A stretch of 54,852 nucleotides of DNA from a virus, in IMG/VR virus record IMGVR_UViG_3300045988_117159. The stretch is one strand, 5' to 3'. Under the pieces are notes generated by a model, which saw nothing but the letters and a program-made list of their open reading frames with translations, was not told the DNA's origin and did no database searches. This document shows positions 9,162 through 54,852 of the stretch, one piece after another. The position numbers were made by a program, and so were the translations under genes. How positions within the stretch are numbered: the first letter of the stretch is position 1; each line of letters begins with the position of its first letter.

Positions 9162-9216
9162 TTTTCTTACCCTTTTTGATAACTCTTATTTGTTATCCCT
9201 TTCTTATTACATATAT

Positions 9217-9245
9217 AGTATAACATATATTTTTATGTATAACAA
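9217..9245 (-). promoter_or_regulatory. Early promoter cassette copy 3 (divergent: -35 TTGTTA 9245..9240, -10 TATACT 9222..9217)
   Basis: Same -10 and downstream ATATATG. The core TGTTATAC is displaced 8 bp upstream by an insertion. Confidence 0.55.
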
Positions 9246-33994: not shown

Positions 33995-34162
33995 TTAATA
34001 TTCATATCTTTCAATCAATTCATCAATGGTTTCATCATCTTCGGCATCTTGAAAGTAGCCTCTCATTCTCATACCAACGAGCATACCGATTTCATCAAAA
34101 CAATCACCGCCACAGCCATCATCTTGAAATTCTTTTAATAAATCTAATTCAAATTTAGTCAT
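33995..34162 (-). CDS. small acidic ORF (55 aa), not in the track
   Basis: Open frame with a GGAG-containing upstream region. CGGDC motif. Confidence 0.4.
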   Translation of the reverse strand: MTKFELDLLKEFQDDGCGGDCFDEIGMLVGMRMRGYFQDAEDDETIDELIERYEY

Positions 34163-34201
34163 CTTTCATCAACTCCTCTTTCCATTGCTCTTTTGTAACT
34201 A

Positions 34202-34444
34202 TTAATCATCTTCAACCCTCCAATCTAATGCTTGTCCGCAATCCCAACAATATCTAGTTTCTTGACGTTCATTCATGTAATGTTCTAGTAACGCATTGCC
34301 ACAATTTGGACAAGTATAGGTATCTTTAGGTTCAAAAAGCTTATCAAGAGAGGAAGTTTTTTTCTTCCTCATTTTGTTTTTAATTGGTTTTTTAGGTGTT
34401 GCCTTTTCTACTAATGCTTCTTGATATTTATTCATTATTTTCAC
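34202..34444 (-). CDS. zinc-ribbon protein (80 aa)
   Basis: CPNCGN ... CWDCGQ cysteine pairs. Confidence 0.55.
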   Translation of the reverse strand: MKIMNKYQEALVEKATPKKPIKNKMRKKKTSSLDKLFEPKDTYTCPNCGNALLEHYMNERQETRYCWDCGQALDWRVEDD

Positions 34445-34447
34445 CTC

Positions 34448-34603
34448 CTATTCATAATAATATAAAATATATGTTGAATCAAATACTATACTATCTTTAT
34501 AAATATATTCAACTTTTACAATATTTTCTTTCTTGATATTATTTTCATTTATGAATTTTTCTAATTCATATCCACTACTAAACTGTTTAACACAAAACTG
34601 CAT
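34448..34603 (-). CDS. small ORF (51 aa), paralog of 32933..33082
   Basis: See the paralog entry. Its stop is followed by the SD of the next gene. Confidence 0.4.
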   Translation of the reverse strand: MQFCVKQFSSGYELEKFINENNIKKENIVKVEYIYKDSIVFDSTYILYYYE

Positions 34604-34605
34604 AC

Positions 34606-34836
34606 TTATTTCTCCTTATAGCATTCTAATTCTTTAAATTTAACATAGATAGCTCTTATTTCATCCGCTGTTAATATCCCATCATCACTTTGTACACTTT
34701 CCGCTTCAATATATATTTTTAACTCATGGTCATGTTCAGTTGATGAATATTCTATTGTTGACATATTGAATAAATCATAAGTTACTTTAGTTCTATCGTA
34801 TCCTAAATCTAATAATAAACTTTGTGATTTTTCCAT
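34606..34836 (-). CDS. hypothetical protein (76 aa)
   Basis: ORF, tight packing. Confidence 0.5.
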   Translation of the reverse strand: MEKSQSLLLDLGYDRTKVTYDLFNMSTIEYSSTEHDHELKIYIEAESVQSDDGILTADEIRAIYVKFKELECYKEK

Positions 34837-34838
34837 AA

Positions 34839-35192
34839 TTATTTCCTCTTTAAAATATATAAAGTTGCCTCATAATAATGCGTAGTATTTTCAACTTCAG
34901 TAGCATCAGCTAATATATTACAGCATGTTTCTAACAGGTCTCTTTTTAATTCATCTTCTACTGTATAAGTTTCACTTGTAGATAAGCTTGGAAAATAAGG
35001 TTTATTGTACTTCAAATGAATATCTTTGATTTCATATTCAGTAAATTCTACTTTTGGGGCGCCGTACTTAATAGATGATATTGAAATTAACTTATTATTT
35101 AATTTCTTAATCACTTTATAATCTTTATTTAGATTATAATATTTGATTCCTAATATTAATACAATAATTAATAATATAATATTTATATACAT
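34839..35192 (-). CDS. membrane-anchored hypothetical protein (117 aa)
   Basis: N-terminal transmembrane segment YINIILLIIVLILGI. Confidence 0.5.
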   Translation of the reverse strand: MYINIILLIIVLILGIKYYNLNKDYKVIKKLNNKLISISSIKYGAPKVEFTEYEIKDIHLKYNKPYFPSLSTSETYTVEDELKRDLLETCCNILADATEVENTTHYYEATLYILKRK

Positions 35193-35692
35193 TATTCATC
35201 CTCCACGATTTCACAATTTTCTAAAACATCTTCAATAATATAATATTTTTGACTTTCCCAAGTCACGAATTGGAATAATTGCTCTAAAAAGTTACATAAA
35301 TAGCAAGTTTCACCGCCTGCCCACCATGTTTTATCATCATCCATGATATGAGGTTCTTTTTCATATAAATTTATCAGTCCGCCTTTGTCTCTACAAATAT
35401 AGTTTACTCCTTGTTTTTGCAAAAACTTGAGCATTTCATAATCTAAAAAGGTAACTTTGATTGGTTCTAAAGGTTCTAATTCGTCTAACTCATATCTCCA
35501 TACAAAATCATTTCCTTTTGCCATACATTGTCGGATGTTATCTTTACTCATAATATCCATATTATCATCGCATAAATCTCTAGCAAGCGCATGCACTGTA
35601 TGTGAACTCTCTAGTTGTTCACCTCTAATAATCATACCTTCATAGTCGAAACTGTATTTAGGAACTTTTAACTTAAATTTTTTCATTTTCAA
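35192..35692 (-). CDS. hypothetical protein (166 aa), paralog of 35673..36161
   Basis: Colinear similarity to the upstream gene (EGM(I/V)(I/V).GE.., (M/V)DIM(S/T)K..I..CM, ..(W/A)W(A/F)G.., ..(E/Q)D(V/I)L..(C/Y)E(I/V)(V/I)E). Confidence 0.6.
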   Translation of the reverse strand: MKMKKFKLKVPKYSFDYEGMIIRGEQLESSHTVHALARDLCDDNMDIMSKDNIRQCMAKGNDFVWRYELDELEPLEPIKVTFLDYEMLKFLQKQGVNYICRDKGGLINLYEKEPHIMDDDKTWWAGGETCYLCNFLEQLFQFVTWESQKYYIIEDVLENCEIVEDE

Positions 35693-36113
35693 TCACCTCA
35701 TATCTATTTAAAATGTCTTGAATTAAAGTAGGTTCTTCATTATCATAAGAAACAAAAGGATATAACTCTTTAAGGTACATATCGAAAACAGGGTAGTAAC
35801 CTTCATTTTTACCAAACCATGCACCCCCATTAAATACAGGTTTATTTTTGAAAAAATTCAATCTATTGTCTGTTTCATCACGTGTAATGTATTTATATCC
35901 CATTTCTAATTGATGTTCTAGAAGTAATTTTTCTAGCATTGTAAAAGTAGGTTTTATTTTCTTTAAATAGTCTTTACCGAACTCATATCTAGGATATTCC
36001 ATACAGTTAATGATTTGTTCTTTAGTCATGATGTCTACATTCAACTTACAAATATCAATACTGTCGGCTTCTAAAATTTTAGTTCTTCCATCAATTTCTC
36101 CTTCAACAACCAT
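35673..36113 (-). CDS. hypothetical protein (146 aa as annotated). The frame continues upstream through a TAG (36128..36126) to an SD-preceded ATG at 36161.
   Basis: Same frame verified codon by codon. AAGGAG SD lies before ATG 36161. Similarity to the paralog extends upstream of ATG 36113. Confidence 0.6.
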   Translation of the reverse strand: MVVEGEIDGRTKILEADSIDICKLNVDIMTKEQIINCMEYPRYEFGKDYLKKIKPTFTMLEKLLLEHQLEMGYKYITRDETDNRLNFFKNKPVFNGGAWFGKNEGYYPVFDMYLKELYPFVSYDNEEPTLIQDILNRYEVIENEKI

Positions 36114-36191
36114 TCCTTCAACCCACTAGCTTTTACCATTATTTTTTAATTCGTATTTCATCTTTCTCTCTCCTTTTTAATAATTTCATAT

Positions 36192-36395
36192 CTAAAATCC
36201 CATATACTCTCTCTTTACTTTTTTGATTGATTTAATAGCTTGTCTTAATGCTTTTGCATCTTGTTTACTAACAATATTTCTTTTATTTTTTGACATTGCA
36301 TAAACTAGCCCATCTAAATTCATTCTATTCATATATTGTAAATTTTCCATAAATTCCTTTTCACAATTTGTATATGTTTGTCCTAATTTTTTCAT
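36192..36395 (-). CDS. hypothetical basic protein (67 aa)
   Basis: ORF. Confidence 0.5.
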   Translation of the reverse strand: MKKLGQTYTNCEKEFMENLQYMNRMNLDGLVYAMSKNKRNIVSKQDAKALRQAIKSIKKVKREYMGF

Positions 36396-36444
36396 AACTA
36401 TTCTCCTTTATAAAATGATGTAAATTAAATATATTATATGATAA

Positions 36445-36726
36445 TTATTTCAATGTTATAACTTTATAATCACCATTTACTTTTTTATCTTGGTCACATA
36501 AAATATAACCTACTTCACAATTAAATATTTCACATAAGCTATACAATGTTTCAGCATCAGGAAGTTTTTTACCATTTTCAATATCACTTAAAGTATTTCT
36601 ACCAATGTGTAATTTTTCAATTAAATCATATTGTGTCATCCTCATTTCTTTTCTATTTTCTTTAATTCTTTTTCCAATTTCTACCATTTTTAATTTATAT
36701 TTCATTTTAAATTTCTCCTTTATCAT
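36445..36726 (-). CDS. XRE-family HTH protein (candidate antitoxin/regulator)
   Basis: IGKRIKENRKEMRMTQYDLIEKLHIGRNTLSDIENGKKLP is a classic Cro/C1-type HTH. ATGA overlap with the MazF-like gene. Confidence 0.8.
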   Translation of the reverse strand: MIKEKFKMKYKLKMVEIGKRIKENRKEMRMTQYDLIEKLHIGRNTLSDIENGKKLPDAETLYSLCEIFNCEVGYILCDQDKKVNGDYKVITLK

Positions 36727-37070
36727 AAATTAAATTGAATTCTCATACTTTGTTTTACTTTATTCACGTTATATTCATTTAAAGATAAAACTTTTTTAAT
36801 TAAAAATTCTTTTGATATCGTGACTGTTTGTTCCGATAATACATAATTATCAATTCCAAAAATTCTAATTTTAGTATGTTGAGGTAAATGGTCTTTTTTA
36901 GTTGTCAATGGAATAACTCCTATTAAATCACAATATTCATTATTCTTATCATTTGATACAACTACTGCCATTCTTCTTCCCTTTTGATAATGTTTATTTT
37001 TGGCTATTGGAAAAACTCTATTAAAATCAATCCAAAACACATCATCATATTTTATTTCATTTGATACCAT
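36723..37070 (-). CDS. mazF: MazF/PemK-family endoribonuclease-like toxin
   Basis: Colinear with EndoA/MazF: DVFWIDF.., GRRMAVVVSND, IGVIPLTTK, LPQHTKI, VLSEQTVTISKEFL. Confidence 0.75.
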   Translation of the reverse strand: MVSNEIKYDDVFWIDFNRVFPIAKNKHYQKGRRMAVVVSNDKNNEYCDLIGVIPLTTKKDHLPQHTKIRIFGIDNYVLSEQTVTISKEFLIKKVLSLNEYNVNKVKQSMRIQFNL

Positions 37071-37198
37071 AGTTTTTTATGTATCTCCTCTTTCATAAAT
37101 TTTTTATAACAAGTTGCTCCCATACCTAATTCAATAGCTTTAGGATTTTTTAATTTTCTTCCACATCTTTTGCAAGTTGTCTGTTTTTGTTCATTCAT
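37052..37198 (-). CDS. DUF6011-like small protein (48 aa), not in the track
   Basis: CKRCGRKLKNPKAIELGMGATCYKK matches the C..CGR.L..P.S...G.G..C pattern. SD GGAGGGAG. Overlaps the MazF-like start by 19 nt. Confidence 0.55.
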   Translation of the reverse strand: MNEQKQTTCKRCGRKLKNPKAIELGMGATCYKKFMKEEIHKKLWYQMK

Positions 37199-37303
37199 TT
37201 ATTCTCCCTCCTTATGTTCATCTAAATAATCAAACACTAACATTGCAATTCCAAAAATTAATAATGGAGTACATAGAATCATTCCTACTTGCATATTTAA
37301 CAT
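37199..37303 (-). CDS. small hydrophobic peptide (34 aa), not in the track
   Basis: MLNMQVGMILCTPLLIFGIAMLVF.. Its stop abuts the next ATG. Confidence 0.35.
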   Translation of the reverse strand: MLNMQVGMILCTPLLIFGIAMLVFDYLDEHKEGE

Positions 37304-37305
37304 AT

Positions 37306-37662
37306 CTAATCACCACATTTCTTTTTACCATATTTTTTACTACCGTATTTTTCATTAAAACATTCTTTACATATTTTGTCATGACCGTTTCCTTTGCTTC
37401 TTTTTCTAAAATATCTAATAGGCTTAATTTCATGACAAACTCTACACTCTAATTCAGTAAGCTTTTCATAATAAATAAATTTAACATCATATCTAGCTTT
37501 GATTAAATTCTCTTCAGATATTGCCTGACTAATTGATTGTGGTGTTCTCCCAAAATAATCAGCCACTTCTTTTCTAGTTCCTACAAAAATACACTCATAA
37601 TCATTTCTTGTATCATAGATTCCATAGATAGCTATATGGTCTGCTTTTCTTTTAATTGACAT
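37306..37662 (-). CDS. NUMOD1-like HTH + zinc-ribbon protein (118 aa)
   Basis: VGTRKEVADYFGRTPQSISQAI HTH, then CRVCH..CKEC. Paralogous segment in 39699..40079. Confidence 0.45.
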   Translation of the reverse strand: MSIKRKADHIAIYGIYDTRNDYECIFVGTRKEVADYFGRTPQSISQAISEENLIKARYDVKFIYYEKLTELECRVCHEIKPIRYFRKRSKGNGHDKICKECFNEKYGSKKYGKKKCGD

Positions 37663-37672
37663 ATTAAATCAC

Positions 37673-37921
37673 CTATCTAAAATCAATGTTACTTTCAAGT
37701 AGAAAAGCAACTTCATATCCTTTCCTATTAATGACAATGTTGTCCATATCATCAATTTCTAGAACAAGCTCTTTTAAATCATATTTAGATTTATTATATT
37801 CGATTGATTCTTTAAATAAATCAATTTCTAAATAATCTTTAAAATCTTCTTCCTTGATATTCATTTGCTTTTTAATATATTGTCTAGCTACATTTGTAAC
37901 TAATACTTTTCTTTCTTCCAT
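37673..37921 (-). CDS. hypothetical protein (82 aa)
   Basis: ORF. Confidence 0.5.
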   Translation of the reverse strand: MEERKVLVTNVARQYIKKQMNIKEEDFKDYLEIDLFKESIEYNKSKYDLKELVLEIDDMDNIVINRKGYEVAFLLESNIDFR

Positions 37922-37940
37922 TTTTCTTATCTCCTTTATA

Positions 37941-38261
37941 TTATCTTGTATATACCATTACATTGATTCTTGGGTTTTCACAAAAGATTGTCTTTTTAGA
38001 TTCAACATATTTAGTTAAATCTAAACCATCAACGATTTCTTGAACTTTTTCAATTAATTCTTCTTTTACATAAAGTACTAAATTTTCACTATATGTATAG
38101 GCATCTTTGTAGCAATCTCTTTCTAATTCTACATCACCTTGTTTTGAAACAAATTCAGTTTTTAATCCTTTGATTTTTCCACTTTTAACTAATTTTGATT
38201 CCTTAACTGCAATTCCATTTCTTTTTAATTCATTTTTTACGATAACTTTTAAACTTTTCAT
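37941..38261 (-). CDS. hypothetical protein (106 aa), first gene behind promoter copy 4
   Basis: ORF directly after the conserved leader. Confidence 0.55.
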   Translation of the reverse strand: MKSLKVIVKNELKRNGIAVKESKLVKSGKIKGLKTEFVSKQGDVELERDCYKDAYTYSENLVLYVKEELIEKVQEIVDGLDLTKYVESKKTIFCENPRINVMVYTR

Positions 38262-38312
38262 TTTATGTACCTCTTCTTTCTTTATTTATGTTACTTCCTT
38301 AACTTCATATAT

Positions 38313-38341
38313 AGTATAACATATTGTTATACATATGTAAA
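38313..38341 (-). promoter_or_regulatory. Early promoter cassette copy 4 (-35 TTTACA 38341..38336, -10 TATACT 38318..38313)
   Basis: Spacer identical to copy 1. Confidence 0.7.
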
Positions 38342-38378
38342 GTGTTTTGGGTAAAGTTTTTTATTTTTTTAAATAAAA

Positions 38379-38398
38379 AGCTAGAAATTATTCTAGCT
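38379..38398 (-). terminator. Rho-independent terminator type II (AGCTAGAA-TAAT-TTCTAGCT followed by a T run)
   Basis: 8-bp stem containing the TAG stop of the delta-like gene. Same hairpin as at 43816. Confidence 0.7.
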
Positions 38399-39334
38399 CA
38401 AACATTTAACAACTAAATAATCTAATGCTATAGACTCATCAATCTTACCTAGTTTTATTCCACTTTCAACAAATTGACAAATGCCTAAATTTCTAATCAG
38501 CTCTTTAATTGAATATCCTCCAACCAGTTTTGAGCATCCATAAGCTTCACCTTTTGTTAAACCTGTTTTTTCACAAACACCTTTTTTATTATTCCCAACT
38601 GATTGATAAGCTAACTGATTTCTAAATCCGTTGTATAGTATACTTGCAATCATAATAGCAGGTTCTCCTTTTTGTTTTGCTTCATTTAATTTTATAATCG
38701 CTTTATCACTATAACCACCTAAAATAGCATTAGTTAATTCAAAAGTAATATCTCCAATTTCTTTGAAAAATATCCCTTGTTTATCCAAGATTTCAAAAGA
38801 TTCATTATTATCTTTTTTATTAAAATTAGAATATTGTTTTATCTTATCACATTCCAATAAGATTCTTCCATAGTCATTACTACAATAATCAATCAATTTA
38901 TCACAATTAGCCTCATTCAAATTAGGCAGCTCTTTTAGCACATAATTAATAAGAATATCATTTGTTAAATAATTAAATTCTACTGCATTTGATTTATTAC
39001 TTGTATAGAATTTGTTTCTCTTATCTAGTTTATGATATTTTAAAATTAATAAATCTTTTTTATTATTAAAAGTATTTTTTACAGTTGCCCAAGATTTCTC
39101 ATTTTTAATAAAATCTAAATCTTCACTAATAATATAGGCTTTTTTAGATTTATCTAATGATTTCATATTTACTTTATTCAAAGCAAAAATAACTGATTGA
39201 CACTCTATTTTTGTATAATTTTTTGAAATAATATCAATGTAATTATCTAATATACATTGTTCCTCTCCAAATAGAATTAAAAAATGCGGTAATGTCTTGT
39301 CTTTTATATGATTTCTTAAATCTATTAATTCCAT
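38393..39334 (-). CDS. holA: clamp loader delta subunit-like (HolA-like)
   Basis: N-terminus ..LPHFLILFGEEQCILDNYID.. resembles HolA (YLLYGEE). 313 aa. In an operon with gamma/tau and delta'. Confidence 0.55.
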   Translation of the reverse strand: MELIDLRNHIKDKTLPHFLILFGEEQCILDNYIDIISKNYTKIECQSVIFALNKVNMKSLDKSKKAYIISEDLDFIKNEKSWATVKNTFNNKKDLLILKYHKLDKRNKFYTSNKSNAVEFNYLTNDILINYVLKELPNLNEANCDKLIDYCSNDYGRILLECDKIKQYSNFNKKDNNESFEILDKQGIFFKEIGDITFELTNAILGGYSDKAIIKLNEAKQKGEPAIMIASILYNGFRNQLAYQSVGNNKKGVCEKTGLTKGEAYGCSKLVGGYSIKELIRNLGICQFVESGIKLGKIDESIALDYLVVKCLS

Positions 39335-39711
39335 TAGAATAATCCTCTTTTCTTAATAGTTTTCTTGTTCTTATTTTGTTTCCTATCACTTAAAAATAAT
39401 TTATATGCACAAATATTATCTAAATAATCATAATCTTTTGGAGTTAATCTTTTTGGTAAATCAAATCCTGTATTTCCGTCAAAATCATACATCATATAAC
39501 CATAAGTTGTATCCCTTTTAACGTCATATCTTCTACTTTTATTTAACTCTTTTTGCATCTTTACAAGTTCACGAGAAATAGAATCGTAATAATTATTAGT
39601 TAAGAAAGATTTATCATATTCATAATACATTATACAATTAAGGATTATCTTACGTTGATAATAATTTATTTTTGCTAATAAATCCCAATCTTTAAAAGCT
39701 ACTTTTTCCAT
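39334..39711 (-). CDS. hypothetical protein (125 aa) inside the clamp-loader operon
   Basis: ORF. Basic C-terminus ending KKRGLF. Confidence 0.5.
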   Translation of the reverse strand: MEKVAFKDWDLLAKINYYQRKIILNCIMYYEYDKSFLTNNYYDSISRELVKMQKELNKSRRYDVKRDTTYGYMMYDFDGNTGFDLPKRLTPKDYDYLDNICAYKLFLSDRKQNKNKKTIKKRGLF

Positions 39712-43701: not shown

Positions 43702-43747
43702 TTTATGTACCTCTCTTTTTTATGTATCTCTTTCTTACTTCATATAT

Positions 43748-43776
43748 AGTATAACATATGTATAACAATATGTAAA
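43748..43776 (-). promoter_or_regulatory. Early promoter cassette copy 5 (-35 TTTACA 43776..43771, -10 TATACT 43753..43748, flipped spacer as in copy 2)
   Basis: Same hexamers. The spacer is TATTGTTATACATATGT. Confidence 0.7.
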
Positions 43777-48389: not shown

Positions 48390-48438
48390 CTTTATGTATC
48401 TCTTTCTTTTTTATGTATCTCTTTCTTACTACATATAT

Positions 48439-48467
48439 AGTATAACATATTGTTATACATAATACAA
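48439..48467 (-). promoter_or_regulatory. Early promoter cassette copy 6 (-35 TTGTAT 48467..48462, -10 TATACT 48444..48439)
   Basis: Spacer identical to copies 1 and 4, with a degenerate -35. Confidence 0.6.
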
Positions 48468-54210: not shown

Positions 54211-54798
54211 TTAACTTAATTGCCAATTATAACTAACATTACAAGAATCAATATATTTACTAAGTTGATATCGTCTTCCTCTATGAGTATACTTAATAAA
54301 TAAATAGCGATTTGATTCTAATAAGATTAAATCACAATCTTTAATTTCTCTTCGTCTTCTAGATTCAGTTTCTTTTACGATATTCATATATTTTTCATAA
54401 AATTTAGAACCTTTTTTAATTTCAACTTCTCTTGAAAGTTTACGATTTTTACCAAAATAATTATTTAATCTTTTATGGCTCTTTTGTTGAGCTTCTTCAA
54501 ACTCTTTTTTACTAGTTGTGTAAACATCATCACTAATCTTATATACAGTGAAGAAATATTTTTGTGAATTACATAATTCTACAACATAATCAAATACTTT
54601 ACGTTCTCCTTCTCTTCGTTTTAATCCAACTGTTAATGTAATATCTTCATTATCAACACTAACTGCTGTAACTGAAATTCTAAAATCATTTCCATATAAT
54701 GTGTTAGTTAAAACAAAATCTTTATGAAAATCTAATTCCATCATCATTTGTTCAGTTACTATTCTTCTTAATTCTTTTTCTTTGTAAATTGTTCTCAT
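54211..54798 (-). CDS. hypothetical protein (195 aa from MRTIY), first gene behind promoter copy 1
   Basis: ATG 54798 sits exactly where the other cassette copies place their start. The 17 extra codons in the track run through the leader and the -10 box. Confidence 0.6.
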   Translation of the reverse strand: MRTIYKEKELRRIVTEQMMMELDFHKDFVLTNTLYGNDFRISVTAVSVDNEDITLTVGLKRREGERKVFDYVVELCNSQKYFFTVYKISDDVYTTSKKEFEEAQQKSHKRLNNYFGKNRKLSREVEIKKGSKFYEKYMNIVKETESRRRREIKDCDLILLESNRYLFIKYTHRGRRYQLSKYIDSCNVSYNWQLS

Positions 54799-54852
54799 TT
54801 TATGTATCTCTTTCTTACTACATATATAGTATAACATATTGTTATACATATG

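Follow-up and report, generated by a model that had tools for sequence, protein, structure and literature searches.

Which neighbouring gene, if any, neutralises the MazF-like protein encoded in the IMG/VR virus record IMGVR_UViG_3300045988_117159? This stretch of 54,852 nt, hereafter the window, carries a gene for a 115-aa protein that the original prediction, made from the sequence alone, took for a MazF/PemK-like toxin. It was said to have no MazE-type antitoxin gene ahead of it and to be followed by a gene for a Cro/C1-type helix-turn-helix (HTH) protein of the XRE kind, an order resembling HigBA. Three roles had been offered: a hybrid toxin-antitoxin (TA) pair, an RNase deployed by the phage for host shutoff or superinfection exclusion, and a counter-defence device. 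With moderate confidence, we read this as an accessory ('moron'-type) gene that encodes a predicted solitary MazF-family endoribonuclease without a dedicated antitoxin, in a virulent siphovirus of low-GC Firmicutes that resembles phiCTP1 and Dp-1. Among the three roles, the phage-deployed RNase fits best and the hybrid pair is not supported; most likely, no neighbour neutralises the protein. The gene at the core of this finding, identified by Pfam, PHROG, AlphaFold2 (AF2)/Foldseek and dN/dS analyses, is the following.

36723-37070, minus strand: MazF/PemK-family endoribonuclease gene, 115 aa

The 115-aa protein has the fold and catalytic residues of MazF

In a profile search, residues 10-112 of the 115-aa protein matched positions 4-108 of the 109-position PemK_toxin profile (PF02452; E=2.4e-16, 60.3 bits against a cutoff of 23.1 bits), and phrog_1936, 'MazF-like growth inhibitor', matched residues 3-113 (1e-19). 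The PDB matches obtained with phmmer were EndoA/MazF of Bacillus subtilis and MoxT of B. cereus and B. anthracis, followed by MazF of Staphylococcus aureus. An AF2 model built with 62 family members as input reached a pLDDT of 93.3 and a pTM of 0.86. The model adopts the SH3-like barrel of the MazF/Kid/CcdB fold, and its top 50 Foldseek matches in the PDB were all MazF or MoxT structures, the best TM-scores being 0.82-0.85 (S. aureus MazF, B. subtilis MazF and MoxT). R33, the counterpart of R25 in B. subtilis MazF (BsMazF) and R29 in EcMazF, is invariant among the 62 family members, and T56, which lies within a conserved PLTTK motif, corresponds to T52 in a gap-free alignment to the VPCTT of EcMazF. 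T56 and T57 are invariant in the 14 closest family members, N40, P54, P63, H65 and E80 are shared by at least 90% of the 62, and the LPxH and EQxxTI motifs of BsMazF are retained in the phage family. The proposed colinearity with EndoA/MazF is thus borne out by profile, PDB matches, fold and R33/T56 alike; a loss of the MazF fold or of the catalytic Arg/Thr equivalents was looked for, and both were found in place. By sequence and by structure model, the 115-aa protein is a true member of the MazF/PemK family with the catalytic Arg/Thr equivalents present.

The protein is basic (pI 9.5). Its identity to any deposited phage protein is less than 40%, and no sequence in 185,579 species genomes exceeds 35%. 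When the region was compared with 50,697 phage records by megablast, there were no matches, and the PADLOC defence models gave none for the MazF-like protein. At every related locus read, the MazF-like ORF was intact, with 115-116 aa, and its dN/dS among seven sister genomes was 0.13-0.26. The gene is under purifying selection.

No antitoxin gene accompanies the phage MazF-like family

When IMG/VR was scanned by pattern, relatives of the MazF-like gene turned up on at least 420 viral contigs, and 80 of these were retrieved. Together with the loci already in hand, these were dereplicated to 44 phage contexts, and the same-strand ORFs within 450 nt were compared with Pfam. In the window, as in the 44 contexts, no gene of the MazE/AbrB, ribbon-helix-helix (RHH) or Phd type was present in this same-strand range of 450 nt, no search for a neutraliser elsewhere in the genome having been made. 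For the window, a profile search agreed with the original description that no AbrB/MazE-type gene precedes the MazF-like gene. An HTH_3 gene lay downstream in four of the 44 contexts, two of them from the window clade, and the other neighbours were diverse, including HU, ParB, a class-V aminotransferase, an integrase, sigma factors and a conserved 162-167-aa protein. As a positive control, the same pipeline was applied to bacterial relatives from the 185,579 species genomes (identity to the query no higher than 35%; the distant ones, with 21-32%, mostly from Desulfobacterota), and it recovered a conserved RHH/CopG-type gene of ~80 aa directly upstream. Because the neighbourhood survey found no antitoxin gene, the phage MazF-like genes of this family appear to be typically solitary.

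The locus also differs from the recognised TA layouts. Neither an adjacent, co-conserved antitoxin gene, as in type II systems of the mazEF/pemIK kind, nor a strictly co-inherited downstream XRE-HTH gene, as in toxin-first systems, was found. A type III system (ToxIN-like, with a toxin fold related to Kid/MazF) was considered and rejected, as the tandem RNA repeats of such systems were not seen: 35500-38500 contained no tandem repeats and 34000-39500 gave no match to Rfam, and so there was no sign of an RNA antitoxin. In published surveys, the partners of MazF are AbrB, RHH, Phd, XF1863, DUF3018 and winged-HTH (wHTH) proteins, XRE not being listed (PMC2701414, PMC3879964).

Two other neighbours were observed in the survey. 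In Javan streptococcal prophages and gut 'Heliusvirales', the conserved 162-167-aa protein is encoded directly before the MazF-like gene with a gap of 0-15 nt (loci L001, L003, L031-L040, L044-L048, L057, L062, L073-L081 and L086 in our numbering). It follows a helicase gene in two annotated examples (L001 and L003), and for one of the three members scanned a weak HTH match below threshold was obtained at the C-terminus. At L008 (4371-4739) and L014 (978-1406), where the MazF-like protein is ~50% identical, the next gene, at 11-13 nt, codes for a 122-142-aa protein in which a CxxC...CxxC zinc ribbon (sub-threshold Zn_ribbon_4) is combined with a long, charged tail at the C-terminus.

DUF6011 belongs to the sigma-factor region

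The module had been described as four ORFs, and these were recovered, all on the minus strand, at 37303-37199, 37198-37052, 37070-36723 and 36726-36445. Two of them adjoin the MazF-like gene and are candidate partners. The one upstream is as follows.

37052-37198, minus strand: DUF6011 mini-protein (PF19474), 48 aa, pI 9.85, overlapping the MazF-like start by 19 nt

The overlap of 19 nt is present in the letters as reported, and the suggested likeness of the 48-aa Cys protein to DUF6011 proved correct, with a match to PF19474 above the Pfam cutoff (6.4e-10, 38.8 bits against 26.6 bits) and the motif CxxCGR...GxGxxC. C9, C12 and C30 are invariant in 41 homologues, the charge is +8.6, and dN/dS is 0.06-0.25.

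The MazF-like protein and DUF6011 may form a real module, in which the zinc knuckle would serve either as an inhibitor, like the zinc domain of MqsA on MqsR, or as a specificity or targeting cofactor. We regard such a module as unlikely. In its favour, each of the 16 carriers in this phage group has the two genes side by side, in one order or the other: DUF6011 comes before the MazF-like gene in the window clade (-19 nt) and after it in the L020-L029 clades (+1, -14, -4 and, in one clade, +74 nt). Moreover, both genes are under purifying selection, and the L008 and L014 clades have a different zinc-ribbon protein 11-13 nt after the MazF-like gene. The distribution of DUF6011 argues the other way, since, of the 44 loci where a close DUF6011 homologue occurs, 28 lack a MazF-like gene within 2.5 kb, and in these MazF-less loci DUF6011 usually follows a phage sigma-70-family gene. 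It stands directly after an ECF-like sigma-70 gene in related phages including L110, L112, L125, L020 and L025, and in L107 (IMGVR_UViG_3300029100_000004, 2000-2656) it is fused in frame to the C-terminus of an ECF-like sigma-70 protein (r2+r4). This usual neighbour and the fusion point to a transcription-related role of its own. An inhibitor as strongly basic as DUF6011 would also face an RNase that is itself basic, and the structure offers little to the module: the AF2 model is of moderate quality (pLDDT 75), and the Foldseek search against the PDB was uninformative (best E=3.3, generic zinc fingers and ribosomal zinc-ribbon proteins).

One source labels a DUF6011 homologue 'RNA polymerase subunit RPC12/RpoP', and a literature search on DUF6011 found nothing. 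Its place next to sigma factors suggests that DUF6011 is a zinc knuckle associated with transcription. Where the gene order was read in carriers that do not belong to the window clade (L020, L025, L112 and L125), it is sigma factor, MazF, DUF6011. Given this order, the linkage to sigma factors and the loci that have DUF6011 without MazF, comparative gene order indicates that the late-regulatory region has DUF6011 as a resident gene and that the MazF-like gene is an accessory insertion beside it. As a dedicated antitoxin, DUF6011 is a weakened candidate, in view of the 28 loci without MazF and the linkage or fusion to sigma factors.

The downstream XRE-HTH gene is a dispensable cassette

The second candidate partner lies downstream, within a segment that varies among relatives.

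36445-36705, minus strand: XRE/Cro-type HTH gene (HTH_3, 1.5e-13), 86 aa from the probable start at 36705; the ORF reaches an ATG at 36726 (93 aa)
36164-36695, no strand assigned: variable 532-bp cassette with the HTH gene body and a 67-aa ORF (blastn breakpoints at 36696 and 36163 against L005/L007, and ORF maps)
36192-36395, minus strand: 67-aa basic ORF that travels with the HTH cassette (ORF map)

In the hybrid type II system first proposed, the MazF-fold toxin would be neutralised by the downstream XRE-HTH protein, as in HigBA or MqsRA, and the pair would act as an addiction, exclusion or abortive module. The toxin-then-HTH order and the tight spacing in the window and in L010 speak for such a pair, which would be new, as XRE is not among the usual MazF partners; so does the placement of the HTH homologues (see below). 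The protein itself has few features of an antitoxin. The 93-aa ORF matches HTH_3/HTH_19 at ~1e-13, and in PADLOC it matches generic HTH models only. The HTH domain occupies residues 14-67 of 86, the remaining C-terminal tail of ~19 aa is uncharged rather than acidic, and no toxin-neutralising domain was found besides the HTH. When an operator-like palindrome was sought, only weak AT-rich palindromes were found.

The ATGA overlap between the MazF-like stop and an HTH start exists in the letters. However, AAGGAG at 36720-36715 sits 9 nt ahead of the second ATG at 36705 (MKYKLKM...), and in L010, L136 and L137 the HTH gene starts at the position equivalent to 36705. Because the HTH gene of these relatives starts 13-19 nt past the MazF stop, the overlap is not conserved, and the start codon within it is probably not the one used.

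Comparison with sister phages revealed extensive loss of the HTH gene. In three IMG/VR relatives (L005-7), whose MazF proteins are 93-94% identical and whose nucleotide identity is 96-97% up to 36696 or 36713, the HTH gene and the 67-aa ORF are entirely absent and the MazF-like gene is intact. In L005 and L007, the 532-bp cassette is swapped for ~119 bp coding for a 50-aa membrane peptide, the swap beginning directly after the shared Shine-Dalgarno sequence (SD) and start codon; the same peptide is found in L006. The HTH gene is intact in L010. In L135, it has an internal (N-terminal) deletion with loss of helix 1, and in L136 it is chimeric, its C-terminal third being swapped for a tail like the C-terminus of the downstream paralogue family (phrog_22292; ...EDILxxCEIVExx). 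In L137, it is frameshifted to 50 aa, and P0160 and P0162 carry further disrupted variants. The 67-aa ORF, for which no Pfam or PHROG family match was found, is present in L010, and ORFs of 64 and 63 aa occupy the same place in L135 and L136. Sister phages whose MazF-like gene is intact and under purifying selection have thus lost or damaged this cassette in no fewer than four independent ways, and on this comparative evidence the HTH gene is dispensable, a facultative neighbour and not an obligate partner.

The substitution pattern is consistent with this. Between the window and L010, the HTH gene has a dS of 0.04 and a dN of 0.09 (19 substitutions; dN/dS 2.26), compared with a dS of 0.63 and a dN of 0.095 (ratio 0.15) for the MazF-like gene, which suggests that the HTH gene is a recently exchanged cassette under relaxed constraint. 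We therefore rejected the HTH protein as the antitoxin on its loss or damage in relatives and its dN/dS, and the HigBA-like hybrid as a whole is quite unlikely: the HTH gene is missing or broken in L005-7, L135, L136 and L137 despite an intact toxin gene, the ATGA coupling is not conserved, the tail is not acidic, no operator was seen, and an HTH_3 gene follows in only the four contexts mentioned above. A pattern scan of IMG/VR for close relatives of the HTH protein found none.

Several points weigh against a solitary RNase and should be set beside this evidence. Every close HTH homologue (at least 57% identity) with readable context sits downstream of this MazF clade, which leaves room for some functional tie between the two. 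The homopolymer frameshifts in the HTH genes of L137 and P0160 could be assembly errors. DUF6011 is a constant neighbour in this phage group, and most of its gaps to the MazF-like gene are of 1 nt or less or are overlaps, as a functional pair would show. The antitoxin survey covered the neighbourhood of the gene. Finally, in the literature neither a functional study of a phage-borne solo MazF nor RNase-activity or toxicity biochemistry for this phage MazF family was found.

The remaining alternative, a counter-defence decoy that titrates a host MazE-like antitoxin or heterodimerises with a host MazF or Abi toxin, could draw on the separateness of the phage family from cellular MazF (at most 35% identity in the 185,579 species genomes) and on host MazEF being a documented anti-phage system in Bacillus, with MazF-binding proteins encoded by phages (PMC10769878), but it is very unlikely because a pure decoy would not need the invariant catalytic Arg and the strongly conserved Thr, LPxH and EQ motifs, and PADLOC gave no match.

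The MazF-like gene lies at the junction of replication and late genes

The window encodes its own replisome (a PolA-type polymerase, a clamp, three clamp-loader proteins, SSB, a UvsX-like recombinase, a primase, DnaB and DnaC), packaging and structural genes (large terminase, portal, head and tail proteins) and an endolysin. All ORFs called as genes are on the minus strand, and the GC content is ~27%. No PHROG match to an integrase or repressor was found in any large ORF scanned. With its own replisome and single-strand gene set, the impression of a non-temperate phage given by the original prediction is a reasonable one. By DNA polymerase, the nearest isolates (43-45% identity) are the Clostridium phages phiCTP1 and FA88 and the Streptococcus phages Dp-1 and MS1. 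Because positions 1-55 are an exact 55-nt terminal overlap with 54798-54852, the window is probably a complete circular assembly of ~54.8 kb, although the overlap sequence is also an internal repeat (a promoter element), so that a repeat-induced contig break is possible.

The MazF-like gene is located where the replication module gives way to the late genes. Upstream of DUF6011 lie two further genes.

37199-37303, minus strand: 34-aa peptide, hydrophobic helix at the N-terminus followed by an acidic tail (ORF map and comparison)
37306-37662, minus strand: 118-aa protein with an N-terminal HTH-like segment (sigma-r4/Crp-like) and a C-terminal Stc1-like zinc finger, CxxC...CxxC (Stc1 1.2e-6, HTH_Crp_2 0.1, phrog_35 1.5e-4)

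The 34-aa peptide is identical or conservatively changed in L005, L006, L010, L135 and L137, with a dN/dS of 0.33 against L010, and it has no Pfam or PHROG family match. The 118-aa protein occupies the position of the sigma factor in related phages, in synteny with their sigma-MazF-DUF6011 order, which makes it a candidate for an alternative late regulator.

Just downstream of the module, tandem paralogues of 166 and 146 aa (phrog_22292) are encoded at 35192-35692 and 35673-36113, and their copy number varies in relatives. Across the whole window, palindromic sites are strongly avoided, symmetrically on both strands (CAATTG, 0 against 24 expected; GGTACC, 0 against 5.5), and CTTAG and CTAAG occur 2 and 1 times against 32 and 27 expected. 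Such a pattern resembles the avoidance of restriction sites and may reflect the restriction-modification (R-M) systems of the host.

Repeated promoters and UACAUA sites suggest a possible target

The likely start of the operon and the sites considered here are listed below.

38306-38341, minus strand: promoter-like element, TTTACA, 17 nt, TATACT, with extended -10 (one of seven repeated copies)
24-40, 1542-1558, 9210-9226, 38306-38322, 43741-43757, 48432-48448 and 54821-54837, minus strand: promoter/leader cassette copies of ~100 nt (seven, or six if the ends overlap)
37078-37083, minus strand: UACAUA hexamer of the MazF-like gene, placed after the SD (GAGGAG) and before the AUG, and also conserved in L010 and L135-137

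The promoter-like element at 38306-38341, with a terminator-like hairpin at 38399-38378 just upstream of it, is probably the start of the operon that holds the module. The repeated promoter/leader gave seven matches against 0.07 expected, and each cassette is composed of an A/T-rich run, CTTTACCCAAAAC, TTTACATA, 17 nt, TATACT and AGTAAGAAAGAGA-TACATA-AAATG. All copies are in the early/middle regions, the structural module having none, and they are probably early/middle promoters of the phage. A general sigma-70 promoter scan was near background in this AT-rich DNA (46 sites against 39 expected).

UACAUA is the strict cleavage motif of the MazF proteins of B. subtilis, Listeria and S. aureus (bioRxiv 10.64898/2026.08.06.743204). 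On the transcript strand of the window it occurs 26 times, once in the 20.9-kb late region (Markov expectation 4.8) and 25 times elsewhere, and its late fraction is the lowest among 59 hexamers of the same composition; this contrast is, however, largely explained by the repeated promoter/leader and by composition. Most sites are intergenic, some of them in the -35 region of the seven-fold promoter/leader. The hexamer lies exactly between SD and AUG in 8 of 71 early/middle genes, including the MazF-like gene and promoter-proximal genes of the repeated cassette, compared with 0 of 31 late genes, a contrast that is not significant. Example sites are at 48398, 48145, 43709, 43386, 38269, 37083, 1526 and 1268.

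In relatives, the density of UACAUA was 0.65/kb in MazF-plus and 0.80/kb in MazF-minus loci, alike on both strands, and the arrangement in the leader was specific to the window clade, without tracking the presence of MazF. Genome-wide on the transcript strand, no self-avoidance of MazF motifs (UACAU, ACA and others) was found. Because of the partly duplicated copies, the non-significant gene contrast and the restriction to one clade, the lead is weak. If the MazF-like enzyme were specific for UACAUA, like these closest characterised relatives from Gram-positive bacteria, it would cut the SD-AUG regions of at least eight early/middle genes of the phage, its own mRNA included, and spare late transcripts, a temporal switch like that of RegB of phage T4 that we consider a long shot. 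Such cutting would shut off the early/middle genes and the MazF-like gene itself at the late transition, and it would fit the recurrent position of MazF-like genes next to phage sigma factors and late regulators. The UACAUA sites in early/middle translation-initiation regions thus offer a concrete hypothesis for the target of a phage MazF.

A proposed solitary RNase for lytic growth

Under the favoured reading of a solitary RNase, the MazF-like gene would probably be transcribed from the repeated promoter near 38340, and its product would form a dimer that cleaves single-stranded RNA at a short motif through R33 and T56. The phage would deploy this RNase during lytic infection, when the host cell is already doomed, and possible targets are host transcripts, competing elements and the phage's own early/middle transcripts. 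No dedicated antitoxin would be needed, because the infected cell is expendable in lytic growth. The XRE-HTH gene would be an optional regulatory cassette that is being lost in relatives, and DUF6011 a small gene for a zinc knuckle, conserved in this phage group and linked to the late sigma-factor region; the MazF-like gene would have settled on either side of DUF6011.

With the hybrid MazF-XRE pair not supported, the novelty for TA biology is modest. The wider interest lies in phage MazF homologues that keep an intact active site but have no antitoxin. The phage genomes with such a gene number in the hundreds (at least 420 IMG/VR contigs from a single scan), and the window is a clean example in a probably complete, virulent-type genome. 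The natural 'knock-outs' of the HTH gene indicate that the RNase needs no linked antidote, and the question moves from the identity of the antitoxin to which RNA a lytic phage cuts, and when.

Comparison with known systems

T4 RegB is a sequence-specific phage endoribonuclease with a toxin-like (RelE-like) fold that inactivates early mRNAs, which it cuts at GGAG in translation-initiation regions, and that needs no antitoxin. The MazF-like protein is unrelated to it in sequence and differs from its RelE-like fold, so that the functional analogy rests on the UACAUA sites in ribosome-binding regions. HigBA and MqsRA share with the window and L010 the order of toxin and then XRE-HTH and the tight spacing. 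Different from these systems, however, the fold here is that of MazF and not RelE, the HTH gene is not co-conserved, and its product has neither the zinc domain of MqsA nor the helical extension of HigA.

Compared with B. subtilis MazF/EndoA (NdoA; PDB 4MDX/1NE8), S. aureus MazF and B. anthracis MoxT, the phage protein belongs to the same Pfam family and has the same fold, Arg/Thr pair, LPxH and EQxxTI motifs and a similar length. It is, however, only 25-28% identical to them, is basic, has no upstream MazE (RHH/AbrB) gene and is borne by a phage with a virulent-type genome. MazF-mx of Myxococcus xanthus is likewise a MazF without an adjacent antitoxin that has been recruited outside a classical TA system (PMC2701414), but it is chromosomal, developmental and controlled by the unlinked MrpC, whereas the gene described here is phage-borne.

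The closest likeness is to PHROG 1936, with Lactobacillus phage ATCC 8014-B2 gp086, Streptococcus prophage Javan405_0008 and the gut 'Heliusvirales' NatCom phages, whose MazF-like genes also stand alone, without a canonical antitoxin, in the replication-to-late regions of Firmicute phages. The flanking genes differ, being DUF6011 and the optional HTH gene here and the 162-167-aa protein, HU or ParB elsewhere. The MazF-like gene of the window is therefore a new member of a catalogued class of solitary phage MazF-like RNases.

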